Positions 1 through 20,854 of a DNA stretch of 53,115 nt are shown here, piece after piece; position 1 is the first letter of the stretch, and each line of letters begins with the position of its first letter. This DNA comes from Eubacterium sp. (lineage in GTDB: Bacteria; Bacillota; Clostridia; Lachnospirales; Lachnospiraceae). Position numbers and translations under genes: made by a program. The stretch is taken from assembly GCA_022769785.1 (NCBI GenBank), contig JALEIY010000129.1, positions 1-53,115 on the forward strand, written 5' to 3'. A model generated the notes under the pieces. It ran no database searches. It was given only the letters and a program-made list of their open reading frames with translations, and had not been told where the DNA came from.

Positions 1-1
1 T

Positions 2-595
2 CAGGAAGCAATTAAAATCTGGGAAGCAGAACGTGTCGATATGGTGCTTTTGGATATTAACCTTCCTGACGGAAGTGGCTATGAGCTTCTGAAGAAGATT
101 CGTAAGCAGTCGGAGATTCCGGTATTAATGATTACTGCCAATGATATGGAAGTGGATGAGGTTATGGGATTCACACTGGGAGCCGATGACTATATTACGA
201 AGCCCTTCAGTCTGATGGTTCTCCGGGCCCGGGTTGAGCGGATGCGAAAACGTTCCGGAGAAACGAAAAAGCAGGAAATATACCGGGATGAGGTTTATGA
301 TTTTAATTTTGACAAAATGCTTTTCCTGAAAGAGGGAGAAGAAGTGACTCTAAGCAAAACAGAGCAAAAGCTTCTTCGGGTGCTGACGCAGCATCGGGAA
401 CAGACCCTGACCCGTGAACAGCTTATGGATGCAATATGGTCAAATGATGCAGAGTTTGTCGATGAAAATGCGCTGTCTGTTGCAGTGAATCGTCTTCGGC
501 GAAAGCTGGAGAGCAGGCAGGGCGATTGCCCGATTCAGACGGTGTACGGACTGGGATATGTATGGAAGAAAAAAGCAGAAGGGATAACACAATGA
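2..595 (+). CDS. OmpR/PhoB-family response regulator (5'-truncated by window edge)
   Basis: Frame is open from position 2 (QEAIKIWEAERVDMVLLDINLPD). Receiver motifs LLDINLPDG and GADDYITKPF; winged-helix C-terminus VAVNRLRRKL...IQTVYGLGY. Confidence 0.95.
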   Translation, partial: QEAIKIWEAERVDMVLLDINLPDGSGYELLKKIRKQSEIPVLMITANDMEVDEVMGFTLGADDYITKPFSLMVLRARVERMRKRSGETKKQEIYRDEVYDFNFDKMLFLKEGEEVTLSKTEQKLLRVLTQHREQTLTREQLMDAIWSNDAEFVDENALSVAVNRLRRKLESRQGDCPIQTVYGLGYVWKKKAEGITQ

Positions 596-1455: not shown

Positions 1456-1540
1456 ATTTCAGAAAGGCTCTGGAAAGAATGAAGGAGTATAGTGACCTTA
1501 TGGAAATAATTTCTGTAAGGTCATTATTATATCAGGAGGG

Positions 1541-2245
1541 ATGAAAATGAACGTTTTGCAGACCGAAAATCTGAAAAAATATTATGGCAGTGGTGAAACG
1601 TTGGTAAAAGCCCTGGATGGAATCAGTCTCACAGTGGAGCAGGGAGAATTTGTTTCGATTGTGGGAACCTCCGGAAGTGGAAAATCCACACTTCTTCATA
1701 TGCTGGGCGGTCTGGACTATCCGACCGATGGTACGGTTAAGGTACAAGGCCGGGATATTTCCGGATTAAAAGAGGAGGAACTGACCATATTTCGAAGAAG
1801 AAAGATTGGATTCGTGTTCCAGAGCTACAATCTGGTTCCGGTTTTGAATGTATACGAGAACATCGTTCTTCCGGTGGAACTGGATGGCAATCCGGTGGAT
1901 GCTTCTTTTACGGAAGAAGTAATTAAAATGCTTGGGCTGGAAGAGAAGAAGTTCAGTCTCCCGACCCAGCTTTCCGGTGGGCAGCAACAAAGAGTTGCGA
2001 TTGCCAGAGCGCTAGCGGCAAAACCTGCAATTTTACTGGCCGATGAACCAACGGGCAATCTGGATTCTGCCATGAGTCAGGATGTGTTAAGTCTGCTCAA
2101 GGTCAGCAGTGAGCGATTCGGCCAGACGGTGGTTATGATTACGCACAACGAAGAAATCGCTCAGCTGGCAGACCGTATTGTCCGGATTGAGGACGGAAAA
2201 ATTACATCAGATTCCCGGAATAAAGGCGGTGAAAAGGATGCGTAA
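1541..2245 (+). CDS. ABC transporter ATP-binding protein (LolD/MacB-type)
   Basis: Walker A GTSGSGKS, signature [14 protein letters not shown], Walker [12 protein letters not shown]; RBS AGGAGG. Confidence 0.96.
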
Positions 2246-4856: not shown

Positions 4857-4857
4857 A

Positions 4858-4909
4858 TAAAAAAGGGCATTCCGTCGTGACAAAATGTCATGCGGGAATG
4901 CTCTTTTAT
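4858..4909. terminator. Bidirectional intrinsic terminator between the convergent permease and asnA
   Basis: Long stem AAAAGGGCATTCC..CGTGACA-AAA-TGTCATG..GGAATGCTCTTTT with A- and T-tracts on either side. Confidence 0.85.
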
Positions 4910-4911
4910 CT

Positions 4912-5922
4912 TTAAAGAATTGTAATTCCTTTTTGTGCAGCTTCTTCATAAATCTCGTCAGGCCATACAGAAACCTGAATTTCGCCAATGTGTGCTTTCC
5001 GAAGGAAAAACATACAGATTCGTGACTGACCGATGCCGCCGCCGATGGTCTGTGGAAGCTTTCCTTCAAGAAGGGCCTTCTGGAACGGCAGTGCTGCCCG
5101 TTCTTCACATCCGGCTTTCTTTAACTGACTGGCGAGAGTTTCAGCATTTACACGAATTCCCATGGAAGAAAGCTCCAAGGCAATGTCAAGAACCGGATAA
5201 TACACCAGAATATCTCCGTTAAGCTGCCAGTCATCATAGTCCGGTGCCCGGCCGTCGTGCTTTTCTCCGTCAGAGAGGATATCTCCGATTTGCATCAGGA
5301 AAACGGCACCGTGTTTTTTTACGATTTCGTATTCCCTCTCTTTGGCAGAAAGACCCGGGTACTGGTCTAAAAGTTCCTGAGAGGTGATAAATGTAATTTC
5401 CTCCGGAAGGAAACATTCCACGTAGCTGTATTTGTTGGCTACATATTTTTCTGTGATACGAAGTGCTTCGTAAACAGCTTTTACGGTTTCACGAAGTGTC
5501 TGTTCATTTCTGCCCTCCGGGGAAATAATTTTTTCCCAGTCCCACTGATCGACAAAAATCGAATGGATATTATCGGTATCCTCGTCCCGGCGGATGGCAT
5601 TCATATCCGTATAGAGACCTTCGCCCACATCGAAACCATAGCGTTTCAGAGCGAGACGTTTCCATTTGGCAAGAGAATGCACAATCTCAAAAGGACTGTC
5701 ATTTTGTTCCTTTACACCGAAGCTGACCGGACGCTCCACGCCGTTTAAGTTATCGTTGAGTCCGGAATCCGGAGAAACAAAGAGAGGAGCGGAAACCCGT
5801 TTTAAATTAAGCTCCGCTGCAAGCTCTCTCTGAAAAAAATCCTTTACCTGTTTGATGGCAATCTGTGTATCCTTAAGATTCAGAAGAGGGCGGTAACCCT
5901 CCGGAATTGTAATCTGGCTCAT
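4912..5922 (-). CDS. asnA: Aspartate--ammonia ligase
   Basis: LNDNLNGVERPV, EIVHSLAKWKR, HSIFVDQWDWE, RAPDYDDW and TIGGGIGQSR motifs. Confidence 0.97.
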   Translation of the reverse strand: MSQITIPEGYRPLLNLKDTQIAIKQVKDFFQRELAAELNLKRVSAPLFVSPDSGLNDNLNGVERPVSFGVKEQNDSPFEIVHSLAKWKRLALKRYGFDVGEGLYTDMNAIRRDEDTDNIHSIFVDQWDWEKIISPEGRNEQTLRETVKAVYEALRITEKYVANKYSYVECFLPEEITFITSQELLDQYPGLSAKEREYEIVKKHGAVFLMQIGDILSDGEKHDGRAPDYDDWQLNGDILVYYPVLDIALELSSMGIRVNAETLASQLKKAGCEERAALPFQKALLEGKLPQTIGGGIGQSRICMFFLRKAHIGEIQVSVWPDEIYEEAAQKGITIL

Positions 5923-5958
5923 AAATAATCCCCTTTCTTTTCCGACATATAAAACGAA

Positions 5959-7350
5959 TTATAATTCACAGTTATTGACGGTTCTAGGGAATGGAATGAC
6001 ATCACGGATATTGCCCATACCTGTAAGGTACATGACGCAGCGTTCGAAACCGAGACCAAAGCCGGCATGACGGGCGGAGCCGTATTTCCGTAAATCCAGA
6101 TAGAAATCATAATCTTCTTTATTGAGATTGAGCTCATCCATACGGGCAGCCAGTTTATCGTAATCATCCTCACGCTGACTTCCGCCGATAATCTCACCAA
6201 TGCCCGGAACAAGGCAGTCCATAGCGGCAACGGTTTTGTTATCGTCGTTCATTTTCATATAAAAGGCTTTGATTTCTTTTGGATAATCCGTAACGAAAAC
6301 CGGACGTTTGAATTCTTTTTCTGTCAGATAACGCTCATGCTCTGTCTGAAGGTCACATCCCCAGGAAACCTTATATTCAAATTCATCGTTGTGTTTTTCG
6401 AGGATTTCAATGGCTTCGGTGTAAGTAACGTGGGCAAAGTCAGACTGTGCCACATGACGGAGACGTTCAATGAGCCCTTTGTCAACGAAGCGGTTGAAGA
6501 AATCCATTTCTTCCGGAGCATTTTCCAGGACATAGTTGATGATATATTTCAGCATACTTTCGGCGAGAATCATGTCATCGGAAAGGTCTGCAAAGGCCAT
6601 TTCCGGTTCAATCATCCAGAATTCGGCCGCGTGTCTGGTGGTATTGGAGTTTTCCGCACGGAAGGTCGGGCCGAAGGTGTAAATGTTTTTAAATGCCATG
6701 GCATAGGTTTCTCCGTTTAACTGACCGCTGACCGTCAGATTGGTTGGTTTGTTAAAGAAATCTTTGGAGAAATCCACGGTTCCGTCTTCGTTCTTCGGCG
6801 GATTGGACAAATCAAGGGTTGTGACCTGGAACATCTCACCGGCTCCTTCACAGTCACTTCCGGTAATCAGTGGGGTATGCACATAAACGAAATCTCTTTC
6901 CTGGAAGAACTTGTGAATCGCATAGGCAATCAGAGAACGGACACGAAATACTGCCTGGAAAGTATTGGTTCTTGGTCTTAAATGAGAAATCGTCCGGAGA
7001 TATTCAAAGCTGTGCCGTTTTTTCTGCAGCGGATAATCCGGGGCGGAAGGGCCTTCAATGACAACCTCTGCGGCCTGAATCTCAAAAGGCTGCTTTGCCT
7101 GTGGTGTCGGCACAAGCGTTCCTTTGATAATCAGTGCAGCGCCGACGTTCAGCTTACCGATTTCTGCAAAATTATCCAGTGTGTCAGAGTAGACCACCTG
7201 AAGAGGTTCAAAAAATGTTCCGTCATTTATCACAAGGAAACCGAAGGTTTTCGAGTCACGTTTGCTTCTAAGCCAGCCGCCGATGGTCACTTCTTTATTA
7301 TAATAGGACTCACGGCTGTGATATAATTCTTTGATTGCAGTCAATTCCAT
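5959..7350 (-). CDS. asnS: Asparagine--tRNA ligase
   Basis: OB-fold N-terminus, [24 protein letters not shown] and GFGLGFER class II motifs. Confidence 0.97.
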
Positions 7351-7422
7351 TTTGAAAGCTCCTTTGCTTTTTTATTTCATTTTACTCGTTTTGTATCCCG
7401 TTTTTTGAGACACCTAAGCCAT

Positions 7423-7451
7423 AGTCTACTATATTCTGAAAAAATGTGCAA
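7423..7451 (-). promoter_or_regulatory. Putative sigma-A promoter of asnS-asnA
   Basis: Minus strand TTGCAC-17 nt-TAGACT, about 70 nt upstream of asnS. Confidence 0.55.
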
Positions 7452-7498
7452 GAAAATCCACCGACATCATGGAAATTTACGTCAAACAGATTAATTTT

Positions 7499-8011
7499 CT
7501 AAAGTGTTTTTTCCTTTTCAAGCCGAAGCAAATATTCCTTTACGGAAAGGCCACCGCCAAATCCGGTAAGGGAACCGTTCTTTCCCAGGACACGGTGACA
7601 GGGGATAAGAATCAGAAGAGGGTTGTTGTGGCAGGCGCCTCCTACGGCACGGCAGGCTTTTGGATTGCCACATAAAGCGGCGATTTCACTGTAGCTTTTT
7701 GTCCGTCCGTAAGGAATTTGGCAAAGGGCATCCCATACCTTTTGCTGAAATGGAGTGCCTTCCGGACGAAGGGGAAGCTGAAAGCTTTTCCGTTGTCCTT
7801 TAAAATATTCCAGAAGCTGACGGTGGGCTTCGGCGATTAAAACAGTTTCCCGGTAATATTGCATATGTTCTTCCAGAGGAAATGAGTGTTTCTGATAAAG
7901 ATACAGGCCGGTCAGGGCATTTCCGGTTTCTTCAATCCGGATGAGGCCGATGGGAGTATCGTAATGATAATAAAATGGAAGTTCCCGACAGGTTTTTGTA
8001 TTTTCCGACAT
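7499..8011 (-). CDS. ogt: Methylated-DNA--protein-cysteine S-methyltransferase
   Basis: Active-site PCHRV, GTPFQQKVW and RAVGGAC motifs; RBS GAAGGAG before ATG 8011. Confidence 0.95.
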   Translation of the reverse strand: MSENTKTCRELPFYYHYDTPIGLIRIEETGNALTGLYLYQKHSFPLEEHMQYYRETVLIAEAHRQLLEYFKGQRKSFQLPLRPEGTPFQQKVWDALCQIPYGRTKSYSEIAALCGNPKACRAVGGACHNNPLLILIPCHRVLGKNGSLTGFGGGLSVKEYLLRLEKEKTL

Positions 8012-8107
8012 GGCAATTTCTCCTTCCGTTAGATTTGTTTTCATAAGCATAGCATAAAAGGAAGAAAATCGAAAGTTCATCCGGGCAGCAGTACATTTTG
8101 TCAGGAT

Positions 8108-8140: not shown

Positions 8141-8340
8141 AATGGCAACATATTTTTCTCCCTTTTTTGGGGGATTCATGTAGTCTGTCTGACCGGAAGA
8201 AGACAGTTCTGACCGGAAAGACGTAAGAGACAAAAGAATGAGAAGCATAATTGCGGCTCTGACGGCAAGGTTTGACCAAGCGGGAATAGCTGTGCAAGGC
8301 AGGATATATGGATTCATGTATGCTGCAAGGGGGATAGTGT

Positions 8341-8396: not shown

Positions 8397-9161
8397 ATGT
8401 TAAAAATCGCAATTTACGGAAAAGGCGGTATCGGGAAATCAACTGTCACTGCCAATCTGGCAGCGGCTTTTGCTAGCTTGGGTAAAAAAGTCATACAGAT
8501 TGGCTGTGATCCGAAAGCAGACTCTACCATTAATCTGCTTGGGGGAGAAACACCGATTCCCGTGATGAACTATTTAAGAGAATATGATGAGGCCCCGGAG
8601 ACCATAGAGGAGATTTCCAAAATCGGCTATGGCGGGGTGCTCTGTATTGAGACCGGAGGGCCGACACCGGGTCTTGGATGCGCCGGAAGAGGAATTATTG
8701 CTACCTTCCAGCTTCTGGAGGATATGGAACTTTTTGAGACAAGGAATCCGGATGTTGTGCTTTATGATGTGCTGGGGGATGTGGTTTGCGGCGGATTTGC
8801 TGCTCCGATTCGGGAAGGATATGCCAGTCAGGTTCTTATTGTGACCTCCGGGGAGAAGATGGCTCTTTATGCGGCGGATAATATTAATAAAGCAGTGAAG
8901 AATTTTGAGGACCGAAGCTATGCAAGAGTATACGGCATCGTTTTAAACCATAGAAATGTTGACCGGGAAAGGGAAAAGGTCGAGCAGTTTGCTCACAGTG
9001 CAGGACTCCCCATTGTAGGAGAGATACCGCGAAGTGATGAGATTACCTGTTACGAAGACAGGGGAATGACTGTCGTAGAAGGGAATCCCGATTCGGAGGT
9101 CAGCCGTGCATTTTTGTCTCTGGCAGAAGAATTGCTGACATTGGAGGAGGAAAAAGAATGA
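8397..9161 (+). CDS. Nitrogenase iron protein-like ATP-dependent reductase (NifH/FrxC/CfbC family), copy 1
   Basis: [23 protein letters not shown] (Cys97 equivalent) and DVVCGGF (Cys132 equivalent). Confidence 0.96.
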
Positions 9162-10483
9162 CAGACTGCATAAACAGGAAAGAAGCATTTTCCCTGACCG
9201 CAGAGGAACTGGTGAAGAAAGGAAAAGAAGGGATTCCGGAGGAGATGATTACCGGAAAGCATCTGATTTACAGTTCTCCGGCTACGCTTGCCTACAATTC
9301 ACCGGGGGCTCAGGGCTTTGGGGTAAAAAGAGCCGGTCTGGCGATTCCGGGGTCTGTCATGCTGTTGGTAGCTCCGGGATGCTGTGGAAGGAATACTACG
9401 ATATTAAGTGAGCTGGGTGGATACAGTGACCGTTTTTTCTACCTGCTCATGGATGAGACGGATATTGTTACCGGGAGACATTTAAAAAAGATTCCACAGG
9501 CGGTAGAGGAGATATACGATTCTCTGGATGAGAAACCATCGGTGGTGATGATTTGTATAACCTGCGTGGACGCGCTTCTCGGGACGGATATGGAAAGAAT
9601 CTGCCGAAAAGCGGAGGAAAAAGCCGGGATTCCGGTTTTGCCATGCTATATGTATGCCCTGACAAGGGAGGGAAGGAAGCCGCCTATGGTTCATGTGCGG
9701 CAGTCCATTTATTCATTGCTGCGCCCAAGAAAGAAAAAAAGCACTTCTGTGAACCTGCTTGGATATTTTGCACCACTGATTGAGGATTGTGAGCTTTATG
9801 TGTTGCTAAGACAGATTGGAATTAAAACTGTCCGGGAAATATCCCGATGTGCATCATTTGAGGAATACCTGGATATGGCAGAGGCAAACTTTAATCTTGT
9901 GCTTCATCCGGAAGCACGGTATGCGGCTGCCGATATCAGAAAGCGGCTGGGGATTCCATCCATTGAGCTGCGGCGGCTTTATCAGATTGATAAAATCAGG
10001 AATCAGTATGCTCTTTTTGCTGCAGCACTCGGATATGAGATGGATGACAGTGTTTATTATAAAGAGACAGAAGATGCCATTGCAGCATTCCGGGAGCGAT
10101 ATCCTTCAGTTACTTTTGCCATCGGTGAGGGATGTAATGCCAATGCATTTGAGCTGTCGCTGGCACTTCTGCGTTATGGGTTTGCTGTCTCGGAGATTTT
10201 TGCCTCTGTCGGTGAAGAAGATTTTATTTATCTGGAGAAAATCGCTGCACTGAGTCCGCATACGAGGGTTTATTCTAATCTGGAGCCGACGATGCTTTAT
10301 TATGACTGTCAGGAGTGTCCTGCAGATATTACCATCGGAAAGGATGCGGCTTATTATCATCCGGATGCGGTTCACCTTGAGTGGAGTGATGATATACAGC
10401 CTTTCGGATATGCGGGGGTCAGACATTTTTTCACAGAATGTGAAAAAGTCTTACGGTCTGCTGCCGGAAAGGGGGATGAATGA
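9158..10483 (+). CDS. Nitrogenase component-1-like protein, D/E/BchN-type subunit, copy 1
   Basis: [33 protein letters not shown] and ANFNLVL match the nitrogenase oxidoreductase fold. ATGA-coupled to nifH-like. Confidence 0.88.
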
Positions 10484-11544
10484 TGAAAGGACTGAGAAAA
10501 TTTATTGCACCTTTTGCTCCGGACCAGTCCGGTGCGGCAGCGGTGTTTTGTGAACTGGGAGGACTTGTGATTATCCTGGATGCCGGCGGATGTGCGGGGA
10601 ATATCTGTGGTTTTGATGAACCACGGTGGTTTACCAGCCGAAGTGCAATCTTCAGTGCCGGGCTTCGGGATATGGATGCGATTCTGGGAAGAGATGACAG
10701 GCTGGTTGAAAAGATTTCCAAAGCCTGTAAAAAGGTAAACGGACATTTTGTGGCAGTGATTGGCACGCCGGTTCCGGCGGTCATCGGAACAGATTATCGG
10801 GCACTGGCAAGGATGATTGAAAAAAAGACCGGTCTTCCTGCGGTTGCCATTGACACCAACGGTATGGAGCTTTATGACACAGGAGTGCAAAAAGCACAGA
10901 AGGTATTGTTTGAAGTTTTTACCGGGGAAGAAAAAGAGGGACAGAGCCGGGAGGAAAAACGTCTGGGTATTCTTGGAGCAACACCGATGGATTTTTCCGG
11001 CGATATGGATAAGCTGACGGCATATTACCGCGAAAAAGGCTGGGATAAAATTACCTGTTATGGTATGGGGGCAGGACTTGCGGAAGTAAAATCAGCTTCC
11101 TGCGAAGGGAAAAATATCGTCATTGCTCCTGCCGGTCTGGCGGCCGCACGTTATCTTGAAAAGAAATATGGCATCCCTTATGAAACGGATTATCCGGTGG
11201 AAATTTTATCGGAATGGAAAGAAATTTGTGACTGTATGCCGCAGTGGAAAGGGAAAAAGATATTGATTGTCCATCAGCAGATTCTTGCCAATGCACTTCG
11301 GGATAAACTGGAAAAGATACCGGGAACCATGGTGGATGTAGCCTCATGGTTTATGATGGAAAAACAATGGAAAAGAGAACAGGATGTGCATTTAAAGGAA
11401 GAAGAGCAGTGGAATGAACTGGTAAAAGAGCGGGAGTATGACGTCGTAATAGGCGACAGTCTGTTTCAGAGAGGACTTTCGGGATTTGCCGGTCAGTATG
11501 TGAAACTGCCGCATTTTGCAGTTTCCGGAAAGAGGAGCGAATGA
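10480..11544 (+). CDS. Nitrogenase component-1-like protein, K/N/BchB-type subunit, copy 1
   Basis: DAGGCAG, LRDMDAILG, GTPVPAVIGTD, GILGATP and AARYLEKKYGIPY motifs; ATGA-coupled. Confidence 0.87.
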   Translation: MMKGLRKFIAPFAPDQSGAAAVFCELGGLVIILDAGGCAGNICGFDEPRWFTSRSAIFSAGLRDMDAILGRDDRLVEKISKACKKVNGHFVAVIGTPVPAVIGTDYRALARMIEKKTGLPAVAIDTNGMELYDTGVQKAQKVLFEVFTGEEKEGQSREEKRLGILGATPMDFSGDMDKLTAYYREKGWDKITCYGMGAGLAEVKSASCEGKNIVIAPAGLAAARYLEKKYGIPYETDYPVEILSEWKEICDCMPQWKGKKILIVHQQILANALRDKLEKIPGTMVDVASWFMMEKQWKREQDVHLKEEEQWNELVKEREYDVVIGDSLFQRGLSGFAGQYVKLPHFAVSGKRSE

Positions 11545-13925
11545 AAAAAAGTAAAACGGTTCGAATCCGTGTATTTGGAATAGTACAGGGAGTAGGATTC
11601 CGTCCGACCGTAAGCCGTCATGCAGTGGCATCCCACATTAAAGGGAGCGTCTGCAATAAAGGCTCCTTTGTGGAGATATGGGCACAGGGAACCAAAGAAG
11701 ATATTGATGTTTTTTGCAGGAAGATTCAGAAGGAACCTCCGCAAAGAGCGGTGATCATGAAGATTTCGATTGAGGAAAGGCAGACGGGATTTACGGATTT
11801 TACGGATTTTTCTATTATAGAAAGTGAAAAAAAGAGGGGAGATATTTTTGTTTCTCCGGACATTGGAATCTGCCCCCAGTGTAAAAAAGAACTATATGAC
11901 CGGAATGACCGGAGATACCTGCATCCCTTTATTAATTGTACCTGCTGCGGGCCGAGACTGACGATTCTTGATGCCATGCCTTATGACAGGGAAAGAACCA
12001 GTATGGCCGAGTTTCCGATGTGTCCTTCCTGTGAATGGGAATATACCCACGCAGAAACGAGACGATTTGATGCACAGCCGGTCTGCTGCAATGAATGCGG
12101 ACCTGAGGTATATGTGATTGGAAAAAATATCAGGGGGCCGGAAGCACTCCGTTACGTTCGAAAACTTCTTCGGGATGGAGGGATTGCAGCCATCAAGGGA
12201 ATTGGCGGTTTTCATCTTTGCTGTGATGCCCTTAATGAAAAGACCGTTGCAAGACTGCGGAAAAGCAAAGGGCGCCCGGCAAAGCCTTTTGCGGTAATGA
12301 TGAAAGATATGGATACCGTGAGAAGGGAATGTGAATGCGACGAAGTGAGGCAGGAGCTTCTGGAAGGGTACCAGAAACCGATTCTGCTTCTGGAAAAAAA
12401 GGAGGGGGGAAGGCTTTCCTCTCTGGTTGCACCGGGTAACCCAAAGGTTGGAGTGATGCTTCCTTATGCGCCCCTTCATCATCTTTTATTTGATTACTGT
12501 GATGATACGTCAGTTTCAGATTGTCTGGTTATGACCAGTGCCAATAATTCCGGAGCACCGATTTGCCGGGACGACGAAGATGCAATAGCGGAACTTGGCG
12601 GACTTTGCGATGTAATATTATCCCATAATCGCCTGATTCGCCTTCGGGCGGATGATACAGTGATGGACTTTTTCAGAGACAGGCCGTATATGATTCGACG
12701 TTCCCGAGGATATGCACCGCTTCCGTTTGCGTTGGAGAGAGAATGGAAAGGGGAAGTTTTGGCCATGGGAGGTGAACTGAAAAACACCTTCTGTGTTGGC
12801 AAAAACAGTTTGTTTTATCCCTCTCCTTATATCGGAGACATGAGTGATGTCCGGACGGTTAAGGCACTCGATGAATCGGTGAAGCGGATGACAGGGCTTC
12901 TTGAAGCAAAGCCGGAGGTGGTGGCCTGCGACCTGCATCCGGCATATAATACCTCTGCGCTGGCAGAAAGTATGGGACTTCCTATGATGAAGATTCAGCA
13001 TCATTATGCGCATATTTTATCCTGTATGGCGGAAAACGAATACCCTGGTCCGGTTATTGGTGTTTCCTTTGACGGAACCGGATATGGTACGGATCAAACA
13101 ATATGGGGCGGTGAGTTTCTGGTGTCGGATTATGATGGGTTTTCCCGGGAAGCTTCCGTGCAGTCATTTGTGCAGGTGGGAGGAGATCTGGCGGCAAAAG
13201 AGGGCTGGAGAGTGGCGGTTTCTCTCCTGAAGGCAGTTTATGGAGAAGAAGAAACGCTTCAACTTTCTGAGAAATGGGAACTGTGTACCAGACAGGAGGC
13301 CAGTGTATTATGTAAAATGGCGGACAGAGGAATAAACAGTATCGTTTCTACCAGTGCCGGTCGGCTTTTTGATGCAGTCAGTGCGCTCCTTGGAATTTGC
13401 CGTTTTTCCACTTTTGAGGGAGAGGCTTCAATATCCCTGCAATTTGCGGCACAGGCTTTTGAGAAAAAAGTGTTCCGCAGTGGCGAAGGGAATTTGGGAA
13501 TGCCGGAGGACTGGGATGAAAAAATGCTTTTGACGATTTCTGAAAAAGAAGAAGCAGAACAAAGAAGCTTCTTTCTGAATACTACCGGGCTGTTTTCGTG
13601 GATTGCAGAGCAGAAAAAACAGGGAAAGGCAAGCGAAGAATTAAGCTATGCTTTTCACCGTATTCTGGCTGAGATGATTGTGCAGGGCTGTATCCGTATC
13701 AGAGAAGAGACCAGGATTACGACAGCGGCATTAAGCGGTGGAGTGTTTCAGAATACACTGCTGCTTCGATTATGTGTGAACCGACTGGAAGAAGAGAATT
13801 TTCATATTCTGATACACCACCTGATTCCGCCGAATGACGGAGGAATCTGTCTTGGTCAGGCAGTGGCCGCCATGAATCAATTGCAAAAGAAATATAAGAA
13901 AGAGGGAGAAAATAAATGTGTGTAG
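11541..13925 (+). CDS. hypF: Carbamoyltransferase HypF
   Basis: Acylphosphatase GIVQGVGFRP, two Zn-fingers (CPQC..CTCCGPR; CPSC..CNECGP), KGIGGFHL, QHHYAH, DGTGYG and PPNDGG motifs. Confidence 0.98.
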   Translation: MKKSKTVRIRVFGIVQGVGFRPTVSRHAVASHIKGSVCNKGSFVEIWAQGTKEDIDVFCRKIQKEPPQRAVIMKISIEERQTGFTDFTDFSIIESEKKRGDIFVSPDIGICPQCKKELYDRNDRRYLHPFINCTCCGPRLTILDAMPYDRERTSMAEFPMCPSCEWEYTHAETRRFDAQPVCCNECGPEVYVIGKNIRGPEALRYVRKLLRDGGIAAIKGIGGFHLCCDALNEKTVARLRKSKGRPAKPFAVMMKDMDTVRRECECDEVRQELLEGYQKPILLLEKKEGGRLSSLVAPGNPKVGVMLPYAPLHHLLFDYCDDTSVSDCLVMTSANNSGAPICRDDEDAIAELGGLCDVILSHNRLIRLRADDTVMDFFRDRPYMIRRSRGYAPLPFALEREWKGEVLAMGGELKNTFCVGKNSLFYPSPYIGDMSDVRTVKALDESVKRMTGLLEAKPEVVACDLHPAYNTSALAESMGLPMMKIQHHYAHILSCMAENEYPGPVIGVSFDGTGYGTDQTIWGGEFLVSDYDGFSREASVQSFVQVGGDLAAKEGWRVAVSLLKAVYGEEETLQLSEKWELCTRQEASVLCKMADRGINSIVSTSAGRLFDAVSALLGICRFSTFEGEASISLQFAAQAFEKKVFRSGEGNLGMPEDWDEKMLLTISEKEEAEQRSFFLNTTGLFSWIAEQKKQGKASEELSYAFHRILAEMIVQGCIRIREETRITTAALSGGVFQNTLLLRLCVNRLEEENFHILIHHLIPPNDGGICLGQAVAAMNQLQKKYKKEGENKCV

Positions 13926-14116
13926 GTTTACCAGCAAGAATTGTGACGATGAAAGACGGGATGGCTGTTGTGGATGCTTCCGGCGCGAAAAGAGAGATAT
14001 CCACAGAGCTGATTGAGAATCTGGAGCCGGGAGACTATGTAATGGTTCATGCCGGTATTGCAATCGCCAAAATACAGGAGGAAGAAACAGAAGAAGAGCT
14101 GGAGGAGAAACCATGA
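13916..14116 (+). CDS. hypC: Hydrogenase maturation chaperone HypC
   Basis: N-terminal MCVGLP (Cys2) and GDYVMVHAG. Confidence 0.97.
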   Translation: MCVGLPARIVTMKDGMAVVDASGAKREISTELIENLEPGDYVMVHAGIAIAKIQEEETEEELEEKP

Positions 14117-15168
14117 AGAAAAATATGGAAGAGTTAAAGAACCGTATCATGGCTTATGAAGGACCTCCGGTTCGCATTATGGAGGTCTGCGGGACTCATA
14201 CTCATGAGATTTTTCGCCTCGGAATCCGGAAATTGCTTCCAAAGCAGGTAGAATTGATATCCGGACCCGGCTGTCCGGTCTGTGTCACCCCGGCGGATTA
14301 TATTGATGAAGCTATATGGCTGGCATTAGAGAAAAAGATAACGATTTGTACCTTTGGAGATTTGGTTCGTGTGCCGGGAACTGAGAAAAGTCTTTCAGAT
14401 GCCCGGGCAGAAGGGGCAAAAATACAGATTGTCTATTCCCCAACCGATGCTGCAGATTATGCGAAGAAACATCAGGATGAAGAAGTTGTCTTCTTATCGG
14501 TAGGGTTTGAGACGACAACACCGGCTGCCTGCATTTCATTGAAAATGGCAGAAAAAGAAGGTCTGAAAAATTATTCATTGCTGACGGCGAATAAAACTAT
14601 GCCACAGGCTTATGAAGCACTGAAAGGAAGTGCAGATGTATTCCTTTATCCGGGGCATGTAAATGCGATTACCGGCACGGCTCTTTGTGAAGAACTGGTT
14701 GAAAAGGGAATCAGCGGTGTTGTGGCAGGCTTTGAGGCAGAAGATCTTCTGGAAGCTTTTGCGGTGATTTTAGACCGGTATCCTAAAGGAGAACCTTTTT
14801 TTGTCAATGCATATAAAAGAGTTGTGACAAAAGAAGGAAGCGTACCGGCTGCAAAGCTGGTGGCACAGTGGATGGAAGCCTGTGACAGCGAGTGGAGAGG
14901 ACTTGGAGTCATAAAGGGTTCAGGGCTCAGAATATGTCATCATCCATCGATGTTTGACGCGAGAATAAAATACCAGATTCCAAAGCCGGAAGCAAAGAGC
15001 AACCCGGTCTGCCGCTGCGGAGAGGTGCTGCAGGGGAAATGTCGACCGACGGATTGTCCTGTTTTTGGAACAGCCTGTACACCGCTTCATCCGGTCGGAG
15101 CCTGTATGGTATCGGGAGAAGGAGCCTGTTCAGCATATTATCAATACGGAGGAGAAATCAATGACTGA
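14113..15168 (+). CDS. hypD: Hydrogenase maturation scaffold HypD
   Basis: CGTHTH, GPGCPVC, GFETT, PGHV and C-terminal Fe-S Cys motif CRC..CPVFGTAC..GACMVSGEGAC. Confidence 0.98.
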   Translation: MKKNMEELKNRIMAYEGPPVRIMEVCGTHTHEIFRLGIRKLLPKQVELISGPGCPVCVTPADYIDEAIWLALEKKITICTFGDLVRVPGTEKSLSDARAEGAKIQIVYSPTDAADYAKKHQDEEVVFLSVGFETTTPAACISLKMAEKEGLKNYSLLTANKTMPQAYEALKGSADVFLYPGHVNAITGTALCEELVEKGISGVVAGFEAEDLLEAFAVILDRYPKGEPFFVNAYKRVVTKEGSVPAAKLVAQWMEACDSEWRGLGVIKGSGLRICHHPSMFDARIKYQIPKPEAKSNPVCRCGEVLQGKCRPTDCPVFGTACTPLHPVGACMVSGEGACSAYYQYGGEIND

Positions 15169-16165
15169 GACAGTAACATTGGCACACGGAGCGGGAGGAC
15201 AGCAGACCTCCGAGCTGATTGAACATATTTTTAAGAAACATTTTGAAAATCCGGAGCTGACCGGAGATGATGCGGCTGTTTTGCAGATGGAAGCGGGAAG
15301 ACTTGCCTTTACTACGGATGGTTTTATTGTTTCACCAGCGGAGTTTCCGGGAGGAAATATCGGCAAGCTCAGTATTTGCGGAACGGTAAATGATTTGGCC
15401 TGTATGGGTGCAAAGCCTCTGTATCTCACCTGTGCTTTTGTAATTGAAGAAGGATTTCCGATGGATAAGCTGGAGAAGATTGCACAGTCCATGGAGATTA
15501 CTGCGAAAGAAGCCGGGGTCAGAATTGTGGCAGGAGATACAAAGGTTGCCGGAAAAGGGCAGGTAGACGGAGTATTTATTACGACAACAGGCATAGGCCG
15601 TATTGAGGATGGAGTGTCAACCTCCGGGAAAAATGCCAGACCGGGAGATGTAGTTATCGTCAGCGGAGACGTGGGAAGACATGGATGTACTATTCTCATG
15701 GAAAGAGAAGATTTTGGAATAGAGGCAGAGGTTACCAGTGATTGTGCCCCTCTTTGGGGAACGGTGGAAGCACTTCTTGGTGTGACAAAGGATATTCATG
15801 TGATTCGTGATGCCACAAGGGGCGGTGTGGGAACCGTACTTTATGAGATTGCCGGACAGAGCGGAGTAGGCATCCGGCTAAACAGTGAGGCTATTCCGGT
15901 GCAGGACAATGTAAAAGGAATTTGTGGAATGCTTGGTCTGGAACCGTTGTATCTTGCCTGTGAAGGACGACTGGTGATTGTGGCACCGAAGGAAAAAGCG
16001 GATGACATAATAAAGACACTCCGTACAGGCAAATATTCTGCTGAGGCGGCAGTCATCGGTGAAATTACGGAAGAGATGGCAGGAAGAGTGACAATGGTAA
16101 CCGAAATCGGAGCCCAGACTCTGCTTCCGCAACCGAGAGGAGAACTTTTGCCGAGAATCTGCTGA
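15161..16165 (+). CDS. hypE: Carbamoyl dehydratase HypE
   Basis: HGAGG, GTVNDL, GDTKV and RDATRGG motifs; C-terminal PRIC; RBS GGAGG. Confidence 0.98.
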   Translation: MTETVTLAHGAGGQQTSELIEHIFKKHFENPELTGDDAAVLQMEAGRLAFTTDGFIVSPAEFPGGNIGKLSICGTVNDLACMGAKPLYLTCAFVIEEGFPMDKLEKIAQSMEITAKEAGVRIVAGDTKVAGKGQVDGVFITTTGIGRIEDGVSTSGKNARPGDVVIVSGDVGRHGCTILMEREDFGIEAEVTSDCAPLWGTVEALLGVTKDIHVIRDATRGGVGTVLYEIAGQSGVGIRLNSEAIPVQDNVKGICGMLGLEPLYLACEGRLVIVAPKEKADDIIKTLRTGKYSAEAAVIGEITEEMAGRVTMVTEIGAQTLLPQPRGELLPRIC

Positions 16166-16250
16166 GAACCGGTGGATTTACAGATTTACGACTGAAAAAA
16201 CGAATCTTATCATAACAAAAATATGTGTTGAGATTCGGGGAGGAACTGCT

Positions 16251-16496
16251 ATGGAGACAAGAATTGCCGTTCTATCCATTATTGTGGAGGATAAGGAGCA
16301 GACGGCGCAGTTAAATGATATGATTCATGAATATTCGGAATATGTGGTAGGAAGAATGGGTATTCCCTATCGGGAAAAAGGTATCAGCATTATCAGCCTG
16401 GTGATGGACGCTCCACAAAATGTCATCAGTACACTTTCCGGTCGAATTGGCCGTCTCAGGGGAGTGACATCAAGGGCAACTTACGCAAAGGTTTAA
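16251..16496 (+). CDS. TM1266-family small ACT-like protein ('iron-only hydrogenase system regulator')
   Basis: 81 aa with RIAVLSIIVED..LN..HEY..VGRMGIPYREKG..IISL..LSGRIGRL; RBS GGGGAGG. Confidence 0.85.
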   Translation: METRIAVLSIIVEDKEQTAQLNDMIHEYSEYVVGRMGIPYREKGISIISLVMDAPQNVISTLSGRIGRLRGVTSRATYAKV

Positions 16497-16515
16497 AAAT
16501 GACAGGAGGCGGAAC

Positions 16516-17295
16516 ATGATAAAAATTGCAGTGTACGGAAAAGGAGGAATCGGAAAATCCACTACGGTTTCCAATGTGGCGGCAGCCATGGCACAGCAGG
16601 GGCTTAAGGTAATGCAGATTGGATGCGATCCCAAAGCCGATTCCACTGTACTCCTTCGTCATGGAAATCCAATCAGCACGGTGCTTGATTTAGTTCGAAC
16701 CAGACGAAATGATTTTACCCTTGAGGATATGGTTACGGAAGGGTTTGCCGGGGTGCTTTGTGTTGAGGCGGGCGGACCGGCTCCGGGAATGGGCTGTGCC
16801 GGGCGGGGAATCATTGCGGCTCTGGAGAAATTAAAGGAAAAAGGCGCATATGATGTTTATCGTCCGGATGTCATAATCTATGATGTTTTAGGGGATGTGG
16901 TTTGTGGAGGATTTTCCATGCCAATGAGAGGAGGATATGCCGACAGCGTATTTGTGTTGACTTCCGGAGAAAATATGGCCATTTATGCGGCGGCAAATAT
17001 TGCCACAGCGGTAAATAATTTTAGCGGCCGGGGATACGCAAAGCTGGGAGGGCTGATATTAAACCGTAAAAATGTAAAACGGGAAGAAGAGAAGGTACAG
17101 GAACTGGCAGAAGATATTCACAGTGAAGTTATTTCCCGACTTTCTTACAGTACACTGGTTACGGACGCGGAAGAACGTAAAATGACGGTTATGGAAGCGT
17201 GGCCGGACAGTGAAATGGCGATGGAATACCGCAGTCTTGCAGAAAAGATTCTTTCTGTATGCAGCCGGGATATCGGAGGTGACGACCATGCTTGA
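16516..17295 (+). CDS. Nitrogenase iron protein-like reductase, copy 2
   Basis: [23 protein letters not shown] and DVVCGGF; RBS AGGAGG. Confidence 0.96.
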   Translation: MIKIAVYGKGGIGKSTTVSNVAAAMAQQGLKVMQIGCDPKADSTVLLRHGNPISTVLDLVRTRRNDFTLEDMVTEGFAGVLCVEAGGPAPGMGCAGRGIIAALEKLKEKGAYDVYRPDVIIYDVLGDVVCGGFSMPMRGGYADSVFVLTSGENMAIYAAANIATAVNNFSGRGYAKLGGLILNRKNVKREEEKVQELAEDIHSEVISRLSYSTLVTDAEERKMTVMEAWPDSEMAMEYRSLAEKILSVCSRDIGGDDHA

Positions 17296-18622
17296 GCTGC
17301 TTCATGGAAGTTCTCCGGTACAGTGTGAAAATGAAAGAATACGGATGGGAGATGCAGCGTGGCCTGCACCTTTTCTTCCGGGTCTGGAATATAACAGTCC
17401 CGCTCACGGCACCTGGAATATTGTGCACACAGGTATGCTGATACCGGATTCCCATCAGATTTATGTGTGTGCAGCAAACTGCAACAGAGGAGTTATCCTT
17501 ACGGCAGCGGAAATGAATGCGGTGGATCGTTTTTCTTCCATTGTGATACAGGAAGAGAATCTGATTAATGGGGATATGGAAGAACTGGTCATAGAAGGAG
17601 TGACAGAGATTCTTCTGAAATTAGAGAGAAAGCCATCGGTAGTTCTTCTGTTTACAGTATGTATCCATCATTTTATGGGGTGCGATTTGGGGTATATATA
17701 CAGTACTCTCAGGGAAAGATTCCCAGGTCAGTGCTTTGTGGATTGTTATATGGATCCGATTATGCAAAAAGGAGGAATGACACCGGATGAAAAACTTCGG
17801 ATACGTCTATATGCTCCTCTTGTGAAAAGAAAGAAAAATCGTAGGCAGATTAATATCATTGGGAATGACCTCCCGACCGACCCGGATAGTGATATCCTTG
17901 CTTTTATAAAAGAATCCGGATATGAAGTAAAAGATATTACATCCTGTAATGACTTTGAAGAATATCTTTCCATGGCAGAAAGCTTTTTGAATATTACCAG
18001 TTATCCTTCAGCTAAAAAGGGGGGAGATATTTTATCGAAGCGACTGGAAATGGAACATCTTTATATGCCTCAGTCTTTTTCTTATGAAGAGTTGGACGCT
18101 CAGTTTTTCCGGTTAGCGGATATTCTTGGAACGAATCCCCCGGAAACAGCCCAATTAAAAAAGAAATGTGAGATGTCTTTGGAAAAAGCAAAAGAACAGA
18201 TAGGGGATACCAGGATATCAATTGATGCATCGGCAGTTCCGAGAATTTTAGGACTGACCAGACTTCTTCTTTCCCATGGCTTTCGGGTGTTTCGAATATA
18301 CACGGACGGTTTTTCTCCGGAAGAAGAAGGCGATTATCACTGGCTGCGTGAACATTATCCGGATTTGGAGGTGTGCGCGACAATTCATCCCGGAATGAGG
18401 ATATTTCCACGGAAATCCCAAGAAAAGATTCTTGCAATAGGACAAAAAGCAGCCTATTTCAGCCAGACACCTTATTTTGTAAATATGGTGGAGGGGGGAG
18501 GTCTATTTGGATATTCCGCGATTTGTCGTCTGGCGGAGCGGATGTGTGAGGCCTTTTTTGAGGAAAAAGATACAAAAGATTTGATAGTACGAAAGGGATT
18601 GGGGTGTGAGAGCTGTATATGA
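17288..18622 (+). CDS. Nitrogenase component-1-like protein, D/E/BchN-type subunit, copy 2
   Basis: YNSP, VCAANCNRG, IQEENLING, TVCIHHFMGCD and INIIGN motifs. ATG 17288 follows GGAGG and overlaps the nifH-like stop. Confidence 0.88.
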   Translation: MLELLHGSSPVQCENERIRMGDAAWPAPFLPGLEYNSPAHGTWNIVHTGMLIPDSHQIYVCAANCNRGVILTAAEMNAVDRFSSIVIQEENLINGDMEELVIEGVTEILLKLERKPSVVLLFTVCIHHFMGCDLGYIYSTLRERFPGQCFVDCYMDPIMQKGGMTPDEKLRIRLYAPLVKRKKNRRQINIIGNDLPTDPDSDILAFIKESGYEVKDITSCNDFEEYLSMAESFLNITSYPSAKKGGDILSKRLEMEHLYMPQSFSYEELDAQFFRLADILGTNPPETAQLKKKCEMSLEKAKEQIGDTRISIDASAVPRILGLTRLLLSHGFRVFRIYTDGFSPEEEGDYHWLREHYPDLEVCATIHPGMRIFPRKSQEKILAIGQKAAYFSQTPYFVNMVEGGGLFGYSAICRLAERMCEAFFEEKDTKDLIVRKGLGCESCI

Positions 18623-19803
18623 AGCAGGTATCCGTAAGAATTTCCACATACACGGCAGATGTATCCGGTGTGTGTTCGGCTCTTTATGAGTTGGGGGGAA
18701 TGGTAGTGATTCACGACCCTTCCGGATGTAATTCAACCTATAATACACACGATGAGCCAAGATGGTATGAACAGGACAGTCTGGTGTTTATTTCCGGATT
18801 ATCGGAGATGGATGCCATCATGGGAGATGATGAAAAACTGATTCGGGATATAGTCCGTGCGGTGAAACAATTTGCTCCGCGTTTTATTGCACTTGTGCGT
18901 ACACCGGTGCCGCTGATGATAGGAACGGATTTTGAGGCAATCAGTAAAATAATTGAACAGGAAACCGGGATTCCGGTATTTTATTTTGGAACAACCGGAA
19001 TGCGTTCCTATGTAAAAGGGGTGGAAGAAGCACTTGCTGTTGTGGCGAAACATATGGTAAAGGATGCCAGCCGGTGCATTCCGGAAAAAAAACGGGTGAA
19101 TCTGCTGGGGGTAACCCCTCTGGATTTTTCGGTAAATAAAACGATGGAATCGGTAAAACAATATTTGTGGCAAAACGGATGGGAAATCGTGAGTTGTTTT
19201 GCAATGGGAAGCAGCACAGAAGAACTGTCCGATGCAGGAAATGTCTGTGTGAATCTGGTGCTGTCCGCTTCCGGTCTTGCTGCGGCACGGGTTTTAAAGC
19301 AGCGTTTTGGAATTCCATATGTGGTCGGTTTGCCTTCCGGGGACTTTGGGAAAAAAGTCCTTGATGATTTAAACAAAAGTGCTGCCGATGGAAAAGACCG
19401 GGTGTCGTATTTTTCCTCGGAAGAAATAAACCCGGGAAAAAGAGAGGATGAGAATAGAAAGGTATATTTTATAGGAGAAACGGTGATTTCGAGGTCATTG
19501 GCGGAAACTATGAACATCCGTGAAAAAAGGGAAATTAAGGTGATTTGCCCGTTGGAAACAGACGGAGAACTTCTGGATGAAAAATGTGTTGTAAAATCCG
19601 GTGAAGAAGAGATGAAAGAAGAATTAATGCAGGCGGCAGTCGTCATAGCAGACCCCATGTACCGGCCGATTTGCCCACCGGAATGTCAGTTTATCTCTCT
19701 TCCTCATGAAGCTTTTTCCGGAAGAATTTACCGCAGACAGATTCCGGATTTGACAGAACTGTCCTTTTTATATAGGGAACAGAAAAATTCAGAAAGTTTC
19801 TGA
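18619..19803 (+). CDS. Nitrogenase component-1-like protein, K/N/BchB-type subunit, copy 2
   Basis: HDPSGC, LSEMDAIMGDD, TPVPLMIGTD, VNLLGVTP and FGIPY motifs; ATGA-coupled. Confidence 0.88.
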   Translation: MKQVSVRISTYTADVSGVCSALYELGGMVVIHDPSGCNSTYNTHDEPRWYEQDSLVFISGLSEMDAIMGDDEKLIRDIVRAVKQFAPRFIALVRTPVPLMIGTDFEAISKIIEQETGIPVFYFGTTGMRSYVKGVEEALAVVAKHMVKDASRCIPEKKRVNLLGVTPLDFSVNKTMESVKQYLWQNGWEIVSCFAMGSSTEELSDAGNVCVNLVLSASGLAAARVLKQRFGIPYVVGLPSGDFGKKVLDDLNKSAADGKDRVSYFSSEEINPGKREDENRKVYFIGETVISRSLAETMNIREKREIKVICPLETDGELLDEKCVVKSGEEEMKEELMQAAVVIADPMYRPICPPECQFISLPHEAFSGRIYRRQIPDLTELSFLYREQKNSESF

Positions 19804-19804
19804 A

Positions 19805-20854
19805 ATGAGGAAAGCAATGAATATTATAGAACAATTTATAAATCATCCGGATATGAGCCTCATGGAATATGAGCTTCTTGTGGAACAGGCAGGGAATCCG
19901 GAAGCAGTGAAAAGGCTTCAGGAAGAGGCACTTCGTATCAGAAGGCAATATTATGGTGATAAGGTATATATCAGAGGCTTGATTGAGTTCACAAATTATT
20001 GTAAAAATAACTGTTATTATTGTGGTATCCGAAGAGATAACAAATCTCTTCAGCGCTATCGCCTGACAAAAGAGCAGATTATGGAATGCTGTCAGAATGG
20101 ATATGACTTAGGGTTTCGCACCTTTGTCTTTCAGGGCGGGGAAGACCCATGGTTTACAGAAGACAGAATGGTTTCTCTGGTTCGTTCTGTTCATGAGGCA
20201 TGGCCGGATTGTGCCATTACCCTTTCTGTGGGAGAACTGCCAAAGGAAACCTATCGGGCATTAAAAAAAGCAGGAGCGGACCGATATCTGCTTCGGCATG
20301 AGACTGCCGATAAATCTCATTACGAAAGTCTCCATCCGGAAGGGATGAGCTTTTCAAACCGGATGCAATGCCTTCAGAATCTCAGGGCACTGGGCTATCA
20401 GGTCGGAGCCGGATTTATGGTAGGTTCACCGGGACAAAATAAGTTCCATCTTGCAAAGGAACTGTATTTTCTCAGTCACTTTAAGCCGGATATGGTTGGC
20501 ATAGGGCCTTTTATTCCACACCATAAGACAAGGTATAAAGAGGAACCGGCCGGGGCGGTCTCCATGACCCTGTTTTTATTATCTGTGATTCGTATTTTAC
20601 TTCCCAAAGTATTGCTGCCGGCGACAACGGCATTGGGGACTATAGACCCATACGGCAGAGAAAAGGGGTTATTGGCGGGAGCAAATGTCATAATGCCCAA
20701 TTTATCACCGGAAAAATACAGGAAAAACTATGCTCTCTATGATAACAAAATCTGTATGGGAGAAGAGGCAGCAAAATGTATTCGATGTCTGGAAAAAAGA
20801 GTGGCATCTGTTGGAGCACAGATTGTTGTTGACCGGGGTGACGTATGTAAATAA
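19805..20854 (+). CDS. hydE: HydE-family radical SAM protein ([FeFe]-hydrogenase maturase-like)
   Basis: RGLIEFTNYCKNNCYYC (CX3CX2C), RYLLRHET, GIGPFIPH, LPATTAL, GANVIMPN, YALY and C-terminal CX7CX2C. Confidence 0.88.
   Translation: MRKAMNIIEQFINHPDMSLMEYELLVEQAGNPEAVKRLQEEALRIRRQYYGDKVYIRGLIEFTNYCKNNCYYCGIRRDNKSLQRYRLTKEQIMECCQNGYDLGFRTFVFQGGEDPWFTEDRMVSLVRSVHEAWPDCAITLSVGELPKETYRALKKAGADRYLLRHETADKSHYESLHPEGMSFSNRMQCLQNLRALGYQVGAGFMVGSPGQNKFHLAKELYFLSHFKPDMVGIGPFIPHHKTRYKEEPAGAVSMTLFLLSVIRILLPKVLLPATTALGTIDPYGREKGLLAGANVIMPNLSPEKYRKNYALYDNKICMGEEAAKCIRCLEKRVASVGAQIVVDRGDVCK

Follow-up and report, generated by a model that had tools for sequence, protein, structure and literature searches.

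Why should a single operon join four hydrogenase maturation genes of the Hyp type, two sets of nitrogenase-like proteins and the radical S-adenosylmethionine (SAM) maturase HydE? This question is raised by twelve genes at positions 8397..20854 of contig JALEIY010000129.1 from Eubacterium sp. (GCA_022769785.1), a stretch of 53,115 nucleotides that we analysed as a whole and refer to as the window. All twelve lie on the plus strand in the order H1-D1-K1-hypF-hypC-hypD-hypE-TM1266-H2-D2-K2-hydE. HydG is regarded as the enzyme that supplies the H-cluster of [FeFe]-hydrogenases with its CO and cyanide ligands. Based on comparative sequence data, we consider it likely that the operon replaces HydG in building this cluster, while the exact division of labour among the Hyp proteins, D1K1 and D2K2 can be put forward in tentative form. 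The operon itself is real, conserved and uncharacterised.

The distribution of HydG supports this reading. In a family sample of 200 genomes, one per genus and each at least 90% complete, HydF was found in 113, HydG in 93 (92 over the cut-off and one, G054, partial), HypD in 29 and D1 in 13. D2-like genes occur in 25 of the 200 and comprise 20 orthologues and five distant paralogues (26-32% identity), a split that is backed by the tree. Among the 113 HydF genomes, HydG is present in none of the 13 with D1 compared to 92 of the 100 without it, and in none of the 19 with D2 compared to 92 of the 94 without it. Seen from the other side, 19 of the 21 HydG-less HydF genomes carry D2, and of the 107 genomes that lack HydG, those with D2 have HydF in 19/20 cases but those without D2 only in 2/87. 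The 87 HydF-less genomes of the family hold no D1 and a single D2 orthologue. A scan of species genomes for D1 relatives added 47 loci, and in the 47 genomes behind them HydG never exceeds the cut-off and HydF occurs in 45; 16 of these genomes have HydG-profile matches of 168-208 bits, which is the level of ThiH. A class-wide sample of 250 genomes (G341 was not scored) contributed four more genomes with the operon and two with the importer form described below, all six with HydF and none with HydG. With duplicates across the sets recognised by identical coordinates (G245=G114, G227=G104, G238=G440, G242=G465), HydG is found in 0/60 distinct D1-carrying genomes, the source genome not counted.

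HydG was also not found in the source genome (G000, 89.7% complete), where the best match reaches 180 bits against a cut-off of 312. We weighed this match, a radical SAM gene on contig C85, as a possible divergent HydG and discarded it, since the low score and its surroundings of thiamine genes identify it as ThiH. The components HydE, HydF and HydA of the HydEFG system are all in place: the genome encodes two HydA (group A with 406.6 bits, cut-off 405.95; group B1 with 592.8, cut-off 450), one HydF on another contig (564.8 bits) and the HydE of the window (19805..20854, + strand, 349 residues; TIGR03956 548.6 bits, cut-off 254.6), which is the sole hydE that tblastn found there. The client of the operon is likely the H-cluster of these [FeFe]-hydrogenases encoded elsewhere in the genome. 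The best solved match of HydE is the Thermotoga maritima enzyme (E 8e-92), and its M230 aligns with M224 of that protein, which we take to be the iron-binding methionine. Comparing 15 HydG-linked with 9 operon HydE sequences, we found 93 sites conserved to at least 90% in both groups and three HydG-type sites that drop to 50% or less in the operon group; an operon-specific fixed site was not found among these 15 and 9 sequences, intermediate sites not being counted. Moreover, the HydG-linked and operon groups interleave in both the HydE and the HydF tree. Judged by their sequences, HydE and HydF look ordinary.

The twelve genes are tightly packed. Each starts with ATG and has zero internal stops, and the junctions measure, from 5' to 3', -4, -4, -4, -10, -4, -8, +85, +19, -8, -4 and +1 nucleotides, leaving only two real intergenic gaps, 85 nucleotides 5' of TM1266 and 19 nucleotides 5' of H2. 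On re-measuring, the gene order, the strand and every overlap and abutment listed in the original prediction for this locus proved correct. Nor is the arrangement unique to this genome, a possibility that the prediction had raised against itself: hypF directly follows D1-K1 in 43/44 informative loci (47 were fetched, of which three are cut by contig ends), including records labelled Bacillota and Actinomycetota, and an order conserved to this degree is not due to chance. The exception is locus L037, where D1-K1 lacks an adjacent hypF. The carriers include the cultured commensal Anaerobutyricum hallii DSM 3353 (locus L013). In many carriers hydF or hydE adjoins the operon, and D2-K2 has one of these two genes as its neighbour in many loci. 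Ten loci show a D1-K1 fusion, many operon copies lack H2, and the gene maps of relatives reveal no substrate-related gene that is conserved in the operon flanks. A conservation profile search scored 7999 proteins, of which 2615 reach E 1e-40 or better; paralogues are possibly counted in this number. In one operon locus, hydF and hydE are separated by an aspartate ammonia-lyase gene (L031:3817-5178); ammonia-lyases in dithiolate synthesis are the topic of one paper (PMC11736057).

A second form of the system sharpens the picture. Eight HydF genomes of the family sample lack HydG, D1 and HypD, and in five of them (G007, G043, G131, G143, G149) H2-D2-K2 lies beside hydF together with a FecCD-type permease, an ATP-binding cassette (ABC) ATPase and a periplasmic binding protein, an importer of the Fec/Btu iron-complex class. 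In three of the five the locus also includes hydE, and in G007, G043 and G131 H2-D2-K2 and the importer genes are located between hydE and hydF. Among 23 HydG loci, most of them picked for hydF beside hydG, hydE precedes hydG in 16, often after TM1266. D2-K2 of the importer form occupy the position between hydE and hydF where relatives have hydG. Searches for HypF came up empty in all five importer-form genomes, and each of them has group A HydA. The form exists further in G195 (93% complete), G342 and G481, and G185 shows TM1266-H2-D2 at a contig end. We conclude that H2-D2-K2 travels with HydE/HydF and that H1-D1-K1 plus the Hyp proteins are exchangeable for the importer. In the source genome itself, no homologue of the importer permease or binding protein scores above 60 bits. 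In a quick alpha-subunit tree, midpoint-rooted and calculated without bootstrap, importer-linked D2 proteins are placed near the base, which hints that import came first.

Some neighbouring loci deserve mention in this context. TM1266 (16251..16496, + strand, 81 residues; TIGR03959 109.5 bits, cut-off 60.8) belongs to a family of putative regulators of [FeFe]-hydrogenase maturation loci that also heads many hydE-hydG-hydF loci of relatives. In two loci the importer ATPase has a TM1266-like domain fused to its C-terminus (L059:2613-3704, L061:5865-6959), and this fusion suggests that TM1266 senses a small ligand and tunes uptake. In G199, where neither HydG nor D2 was found, TM1266 and a sulfonate/taurine-type ABC importer directly precede hydF (L065:6218-10300), possibly a third route of precursor supply. 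The genome G148 (98% complete), in which HydG and D2 were likewise not found, has hydE and hydF beside a multi-gene hydrogenase cluster (L062/L093), and its HydE is the closest relative of the window HydE (support 99).

What, then, are the Hyp proteins doing in such an operon? HypF (11541..13925, 794 residues; TIGR00143 755.9 bits, cut-off 466.1), HypC (13916..14116, 66 residues; TIGR00074 71.9 bits, cut-off 48), HypD (14113..15168, 351 residues; TIGR00075 393.3 bits, cut-off 192.8) and HypE (15161..16165, 334 residues; TIGR02124 431.3 bits, cut-off 251.6), all on the plus strand, were judged by NCBIfam cut-offs together with TM1266 and HydE, and all six score above them. The annotated roles are those of carbamoyltransferase, iron carrier, Fe(CN)2CO scaffold and carbamoyl dehydratase, respectively, and the motifs that define the Hyp system are intact in all four: HypF has its acylphosphatase, zinc-finger, YrdC and Kae1 domains, HypC has Cys2 and His45 in 51/51 sequences, HypE keeps its C-terminal PRIC in at least 95% of 49, and the CGTH, GPGCPVC, GFETT and PGHV motifs and C-terminal cysteines of HypD align with those of the solved HypD 2z1d. 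In line with the original prediction, these genes come without a [NiFe] client. Neither the [NiFe] large subunit nor HypA was found by search of the source genome (HypB was not searched). The large subunit is present in 2/13 family genomes and 3/47 scan genomes with the operon compared to 15/16 hypD genomes without D1, and HypA in 4/13 and 9/47 compared to 14/16.

These numbers also bear on the most conservative explanation, namely that hyp serves a [NiFe]-hydrogenase missed by the assembly and that the cluster arose when unrelated operons merged by chance. The incompleteness of the source genome, the five operon genomes that do carry a large subunit and the lone D1-K1 of L037 would fit it. 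However, it has to face the order kept in 43/44 loci with their differently labelled records, as well as the 11/13 and 44/47 operon genomes in which no large subunit was found. It is also at odds with the HypD phylogeny: operon HypD forms one separate clade (support 99) in a tree that contains 30 of the 54 operon HypD and all 17 others, and nine positions show fixed differences between operon and other HypD. Three of the changes, Y179, S201 and G202, are found beside the PGHV motif, with Y179 next to it. The two family genomes with both the operon and a [NiFe] enzyme (G076 and G094) carry two hypD, one per clade. Finally, in one locus K1 and HypF form a single open frame of 1151 residues (L029:6048-9503), although this comes from one assembled genome and an assembly error is possible. 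Taken together, a missed [NiFe] client combined with a chance merger is largely refuted and in our opinion highly improbable.

The remaining genes encode two nitrogenase-like trios, each with one Fe protein and a pair of component-1 subunits. For the Hyp-linked trio these are H1 (8397..9161, 254 residues; PF00142 E 5e-86), alpha-like D1 (9158..10483, 441 residues) and beta-like K1 (10480..11544, 354 residues); for the HydE/HydF-linked trio H2 (16516..17295, 259 residues; PF00142 E 2e-90), alpha-like D2 (17288..18622, 444 residues) and beta-like K2 (18619..19803, 394 residues), again all on the plus strand. H1 and H2 are 51% identical, D1 and D2 25%. The typical features of the nitrogenase superfamily, i.e. 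the Fe protein P-loop, two cluster cysteines and the component-1 fold, are all present, and the cluster cysteines are C95 and C131 in H1 (together with the P-loop in 54/54 homologues) and the invariant C94 and C130 in H2. Nevertheless, none of the proteins belongs to a characterised family by score. H1 and H2 stay below the cut-offs for NifH (301 and 329 bits, cut-off 394), CfbC (301 and 324 bits, cut-off 402) and BchL (206 vs 345). D1, K1, D2 and K2 match PF00148 yet fall far under the cut-offs for NifD/K/E/N, Bch and Cfb, with D1 at 37 bits on the NifD profile (cut-off 654) and BchB matches of at most 46 bits (cut-off 490). The best sequence profile of the component-1 subunits is NifE. Structure prediction for D1 yielded a nitrogenase component-1 fold (predicted local distance difference test 85.6; Foldseek probability 1.00, template modelling score 0.58-0.69 by query length), with 14-20% identity to solved chains among the matches listed.

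The cysteine pattern is much reduced. Invariant are C75, C76 and C136 in D1 (54 orthologues) and C38 and C43 in K1 (54 sequences), whereas K2 has one conserved cysteine, C37, in 45/45. D2 shows C61 in 53/55, C65 and C125 in 55/55, H127 in 50/55 and C440 in 42/55, the conservation sets of D2 and K2 containing a few distant paralogues. Hence, the residues of D1, K1 and K2 do not provide the six P-cluster cysteines and the iron-molybdenum cofactor (FeMo-co) cysteine of nitrogenase. At the NifE L-cluster position, D1 has no cysteine: His250 (consensus Asn) stands opposite NifE Cys250, presumably the equivalent of alpha-Cys275. Similarly, Pro97 of K1 is opposite the cysteine of the NifE TC motif. 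NifB was not found in the source genome either (best match 26 bits, cut-off 343.65). The reduced pattern and the missing NifB fit a prediction that each DK pair holds one simple interface iron-sulfur cluster instead of a P-cluster or FeMo-type cofactor, with a substrate site that is predicted to be open.

From these elements a pathway can be drawn up. HypCDEF build Fe(CN)2CO, as described in a survey (PMC9431212), and the product of HydG is [Fe(cysteinate)(CO)2(CN)], which as synthetic complex B fully replaces HydG in vitro with HydE and HydF, according to PMC11256358. It follows that HydE needs only a small iron complex from HydG. In a first step, based on known Hyp chemistry and the intact motifs, HypE would turn carbamoyl phosphate into cyanide, and Fe(CN)2CO would be assembled on HypC-HypD. 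HypC would then pass Fe(CN)2CO to D1K1, driven by H1, there being no [NiFe] large subunit as recipient. D2K2, driven by H2 or H1, may subsequently convert it to a complex-B-like [Fe(cysteinate)(CO)2(CN)] and hand the product to HydE. In this sequence, ATP-driven reduction at D1K1 and then at D2K2 would swap one cyanide for a carbonyl and add a cysteine. The last steps, dimerisation, the dithiolate bridge and delivery to HydA, would be those known for HydE and HydF. We place D1K1 upstream of D2K2 owing to the importer form, which keeps H2-D2-K2 only and whose importer would substitute for the genes of the first two steps. Candidate sources of the extra CO are CO2 reduction by an Fe protein, since Fe proteins are reported to reduce CO2 unaided (PMC9571451), or the CooS of the source genome. 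There, the group A hydA is located directly downstream of a CooS-type CO dehydrogenase gene (L001:1282-3871, G000:C121; TIGR01702 492.6 bits, cut-off 478), which is a possible CO source or partner.

The same reported CO2 chemistry is also compatible with a different allocation of tasks, in which HydG is replaced by the operon as well, with the Hyp proteins giving CN, CO and iron directly to HydE or HydF. The DK pairs would then have a secondary task; they might release iron or sulfur reductively, for example, or form CO from CO2. The iron-complex class of the importer would suit such a role, and HydF co-expressed with HydE in the absence of HydG reaches ~1% activation, a value doubled by free CO or CN (PMC9431212). 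Yet the importer-form genomes, without HydG, HypD and D1 and with HypF not found in 5/5, retain HydE/HydF and group A HydA, and there CN and CO must come via the importer and D2K2. Direct donation by the Hyp proteins is thus quite unlikely, and we prefer the stepwise conversion on D1K1 and D2K2 outlined above.

Alternatively, the DK pairs could be end-user reductases with a CO/CN-iron cofactor built by HypFCDE, HydE and HydF, HydA being matured otherwise. Catabolic reductases are among the characterised nitrogenase-like systems (PMC13474568), importer-linked distant paralogues are found in genomes that lack HydF or have HydG, and group A HydA is present in 4/9 HydF-less genomes. On the other hand, such reductases leave two findings without explanation, the contrast between 0/60 D1 genomes and 92/100 other HydF genomes in the presence of HydG, and the appearance of D2-K2 at the locus position of hydG. 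Furthermore, a HydE without any operon-specific fixed site and flanks without a conserved substrate-related gene also speak against it. We therefore regard this alternative as unlikely. This outcome also divides the interpretation that had first been attached to the locus. Its suggestion that nitrogenase-like proteins help to assemble a CO/CN-iron centre finds support and can be narrowed to the H-cluster as the likely client, while its other suggestion, a stand-alone reductase with a CO/CN-ligated iron centre, has been weakened by an ordinary hydE that tracks with hydF and hydA and by the exclusion of HydG by the operon. Likewise, the concern that hyp and hydE might simply track with hydrogenases encoded elsewhere applies to hydE, with hydF and hydA elsewhere in the genome, and not to hyp, which has no [NiFe] client.

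Several points weigh against a replacement of HydG by the operon. The genomes are related and Fisher p-values for co-occurrence consequently overstate the association; most genomes are incomplete drafts, the source genome included, and the 47 come without completeness values. The starred branches of the HydE and HydF trees force only two origins for operon HydE and one for operon HydF. HydG and D2 are both missing from two HydF genomes (G148 and G199), and in G195, which has the importer form, HydF was not detected. Group A HydA reaches the threshold in 11/13 and 36/43 operon genomes and in 8/8 importer genomes; we have set this aside as support, as the 4/9 HydF-less controls exceed the cut-off, too. 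Those controls imply that maturation routes apart from the operon may exist, and PMC11216029 argues for routes of another kind likewise in archaea. In addition, loci with distant H-D-K genes (26-32% to D2) plus binding protein, permease and ATPase occur in eight genomes (L080-L084, L120-L122), three with HydG and five without HydF. As they occur irrespective of HydG and HydF, the wider family has a job that is not tied to HydG loss, and the function of the ancestral family is thus a different or a more general one. On the chemical side, the ligand ratio of Fe(CN)2CO is wrong for complex B, and the step that fixes it is hypothetical. A family search around G480 (nine genomes) returned only the distant paralogue, and a similar H-D-K-importer locus is found on plasmid pTS1 of Treponema saccharophilum (L123:6223-12519).

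How does the system compare to known ones? With the HydG-HydE-HydF route (PMC11256358) it shares ordinary HydE and HydF, a common TM1266 gene and group A and B HydA clients, but HydG was not found here and ten unrelated genes, HypFCDE and the two nitrogenase-like trios, are present instead; consequently, carbamoyl phosphate rather than tyrosine would supply the cyanide. With HypABCDEF maturation of [NiFe] enzymes it shares HypF, C, D and E over the cut-offs with their catalytic motifs, but HypA and the large subunit were not found here or in most carriers and operon HypD is a separate clade. NifH-NifEN and CfbCD/DPOR have in common with it the fold, NifE as best profile, an ATP-driven Fe protein on a component-1 scaffold and, as in the single-cluster enzymes, a small cysteine set. 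In contrast to them, NifB was not found, the cysteine at the L-cluster position is absent, identity to solved chains is 14-20%, no tetrapyrrole genes are present and an organometallic iron unit is predicted as the substrate. H-D-K trios, in places beside ABC importers, are also found in MarHDK and IsrHDK (groups IV-C and IV-F; PMC13474568), but these have a NifB-like partner and a sulfur-metabolism context, neither of which applies to the operon with its iron-complex class of importer. As a whole, the operon thus fits none of the known systems, although each of its components comes from a family already described and the association of the genes had been reported in 2012.

That report (Dos Santos et al. 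2012; PMC3464626), describes NifHEN-like proteins of Coprococcus catus and Dorea longicatena, encoded as two linked sets beside hydrogenase maturation genes, and devotes one speculative sentence to a role in metallocluster assembly. In both cases there are two H-alpha-beta sets, linked to each other and reduced in their cysteines. The paper gives two cysteines in the alpha-like and one in the beta-like subunit at P-cluster positions, with which the core pattern of the operon is compatible, extra conserved cysteines being found in D1, K1 and D2. Compared by description, and with Dorea records among the D1 relatives, the operon very probably belongs to the same family. The paper, as far as its available text goes, differs in naming no Hyp or Hyd gene and drawing no link to the absence of HydG. 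Thus, the earlier label "undescribed" does not hold for the association itself. A HydG-replacing role we did not meet in the literature: our search, with most subscription papers outside its reach, returned no paper proposing the operon in place of HydG. In its accessible parts, a 2026 review (PMC13474568) lists no nitrogenase-like system with a hydrogenase maturation role, never mentions HydE or HydG and calls the unassigned nitrogenase-like clades a main open problem. A 2022 survey (PMC9431212) did not find hydG in 5/8 acetogenic Clostridium species and saw hypCDEF without hypAB in five species, leaving both unexplained. For C. autoethanogenum a plausible HydG is reported, which may make this species a counter-example.

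The window offers little further context. No hydrogenase subunit is present within it and family-profile and Pfam scans revealed no tetrapyrrole gene, in agreement with their stated absence from the cluster. At a distance of 3.5 kb, an FtsX/MacB-type ABC system (1541-4856) is the closest transporter. The flanks (1-8100 and 20900-53115) are ordinary Clostridia housekeeping regions, with a two-component system with ABC exporter, asnA, asnS, ogt, galE, spoIVA, priA, def, fmt, rsmB and rlmN. The proportion of G and C is 0.46 in the operon and 0.44-0.45 in the flanks. Contigs from three public runs cover 28-30/30 bins of the region, no single contig spanning the operon. A promoter and terminator scan gave results at chance level (21 vs 20.9; 11 vs 13.0), and Rfam had no match at gathering score in the window. 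Upstream of H1, an 11-base direct repeat occurs with copies 20 bases apart (8188-8218).

If the operon does replace HydG, it would provide a tyrosine-free route to the H-cluster, for the first time a client of the Hyp proteins that is not a [NiFe] enzyme, and a new type of reaction for nitrogenase-like proteins. Going beyond this, one may speculate, with considerable reserve, that anaerobes of gut and rumen exchange a stable iron-carbonyl-cyanide complex as a shared cofactor precursor, which producers would make by HypFCDE and H1-D1-K1 and scavengers would take up by the Fec/Btu-type importer, both using H2-D2-K2 to turn it into the HydE substrate. Such an exchange would bring [NiFe] maturation, [FeFe] maturation and nitrogenase-like catalysis together in one pathway. 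With the D2 module in 19/113 of the HydF-bearing genera sampled, the finding bears on hydrogen production by common gut and rumen bacteria.

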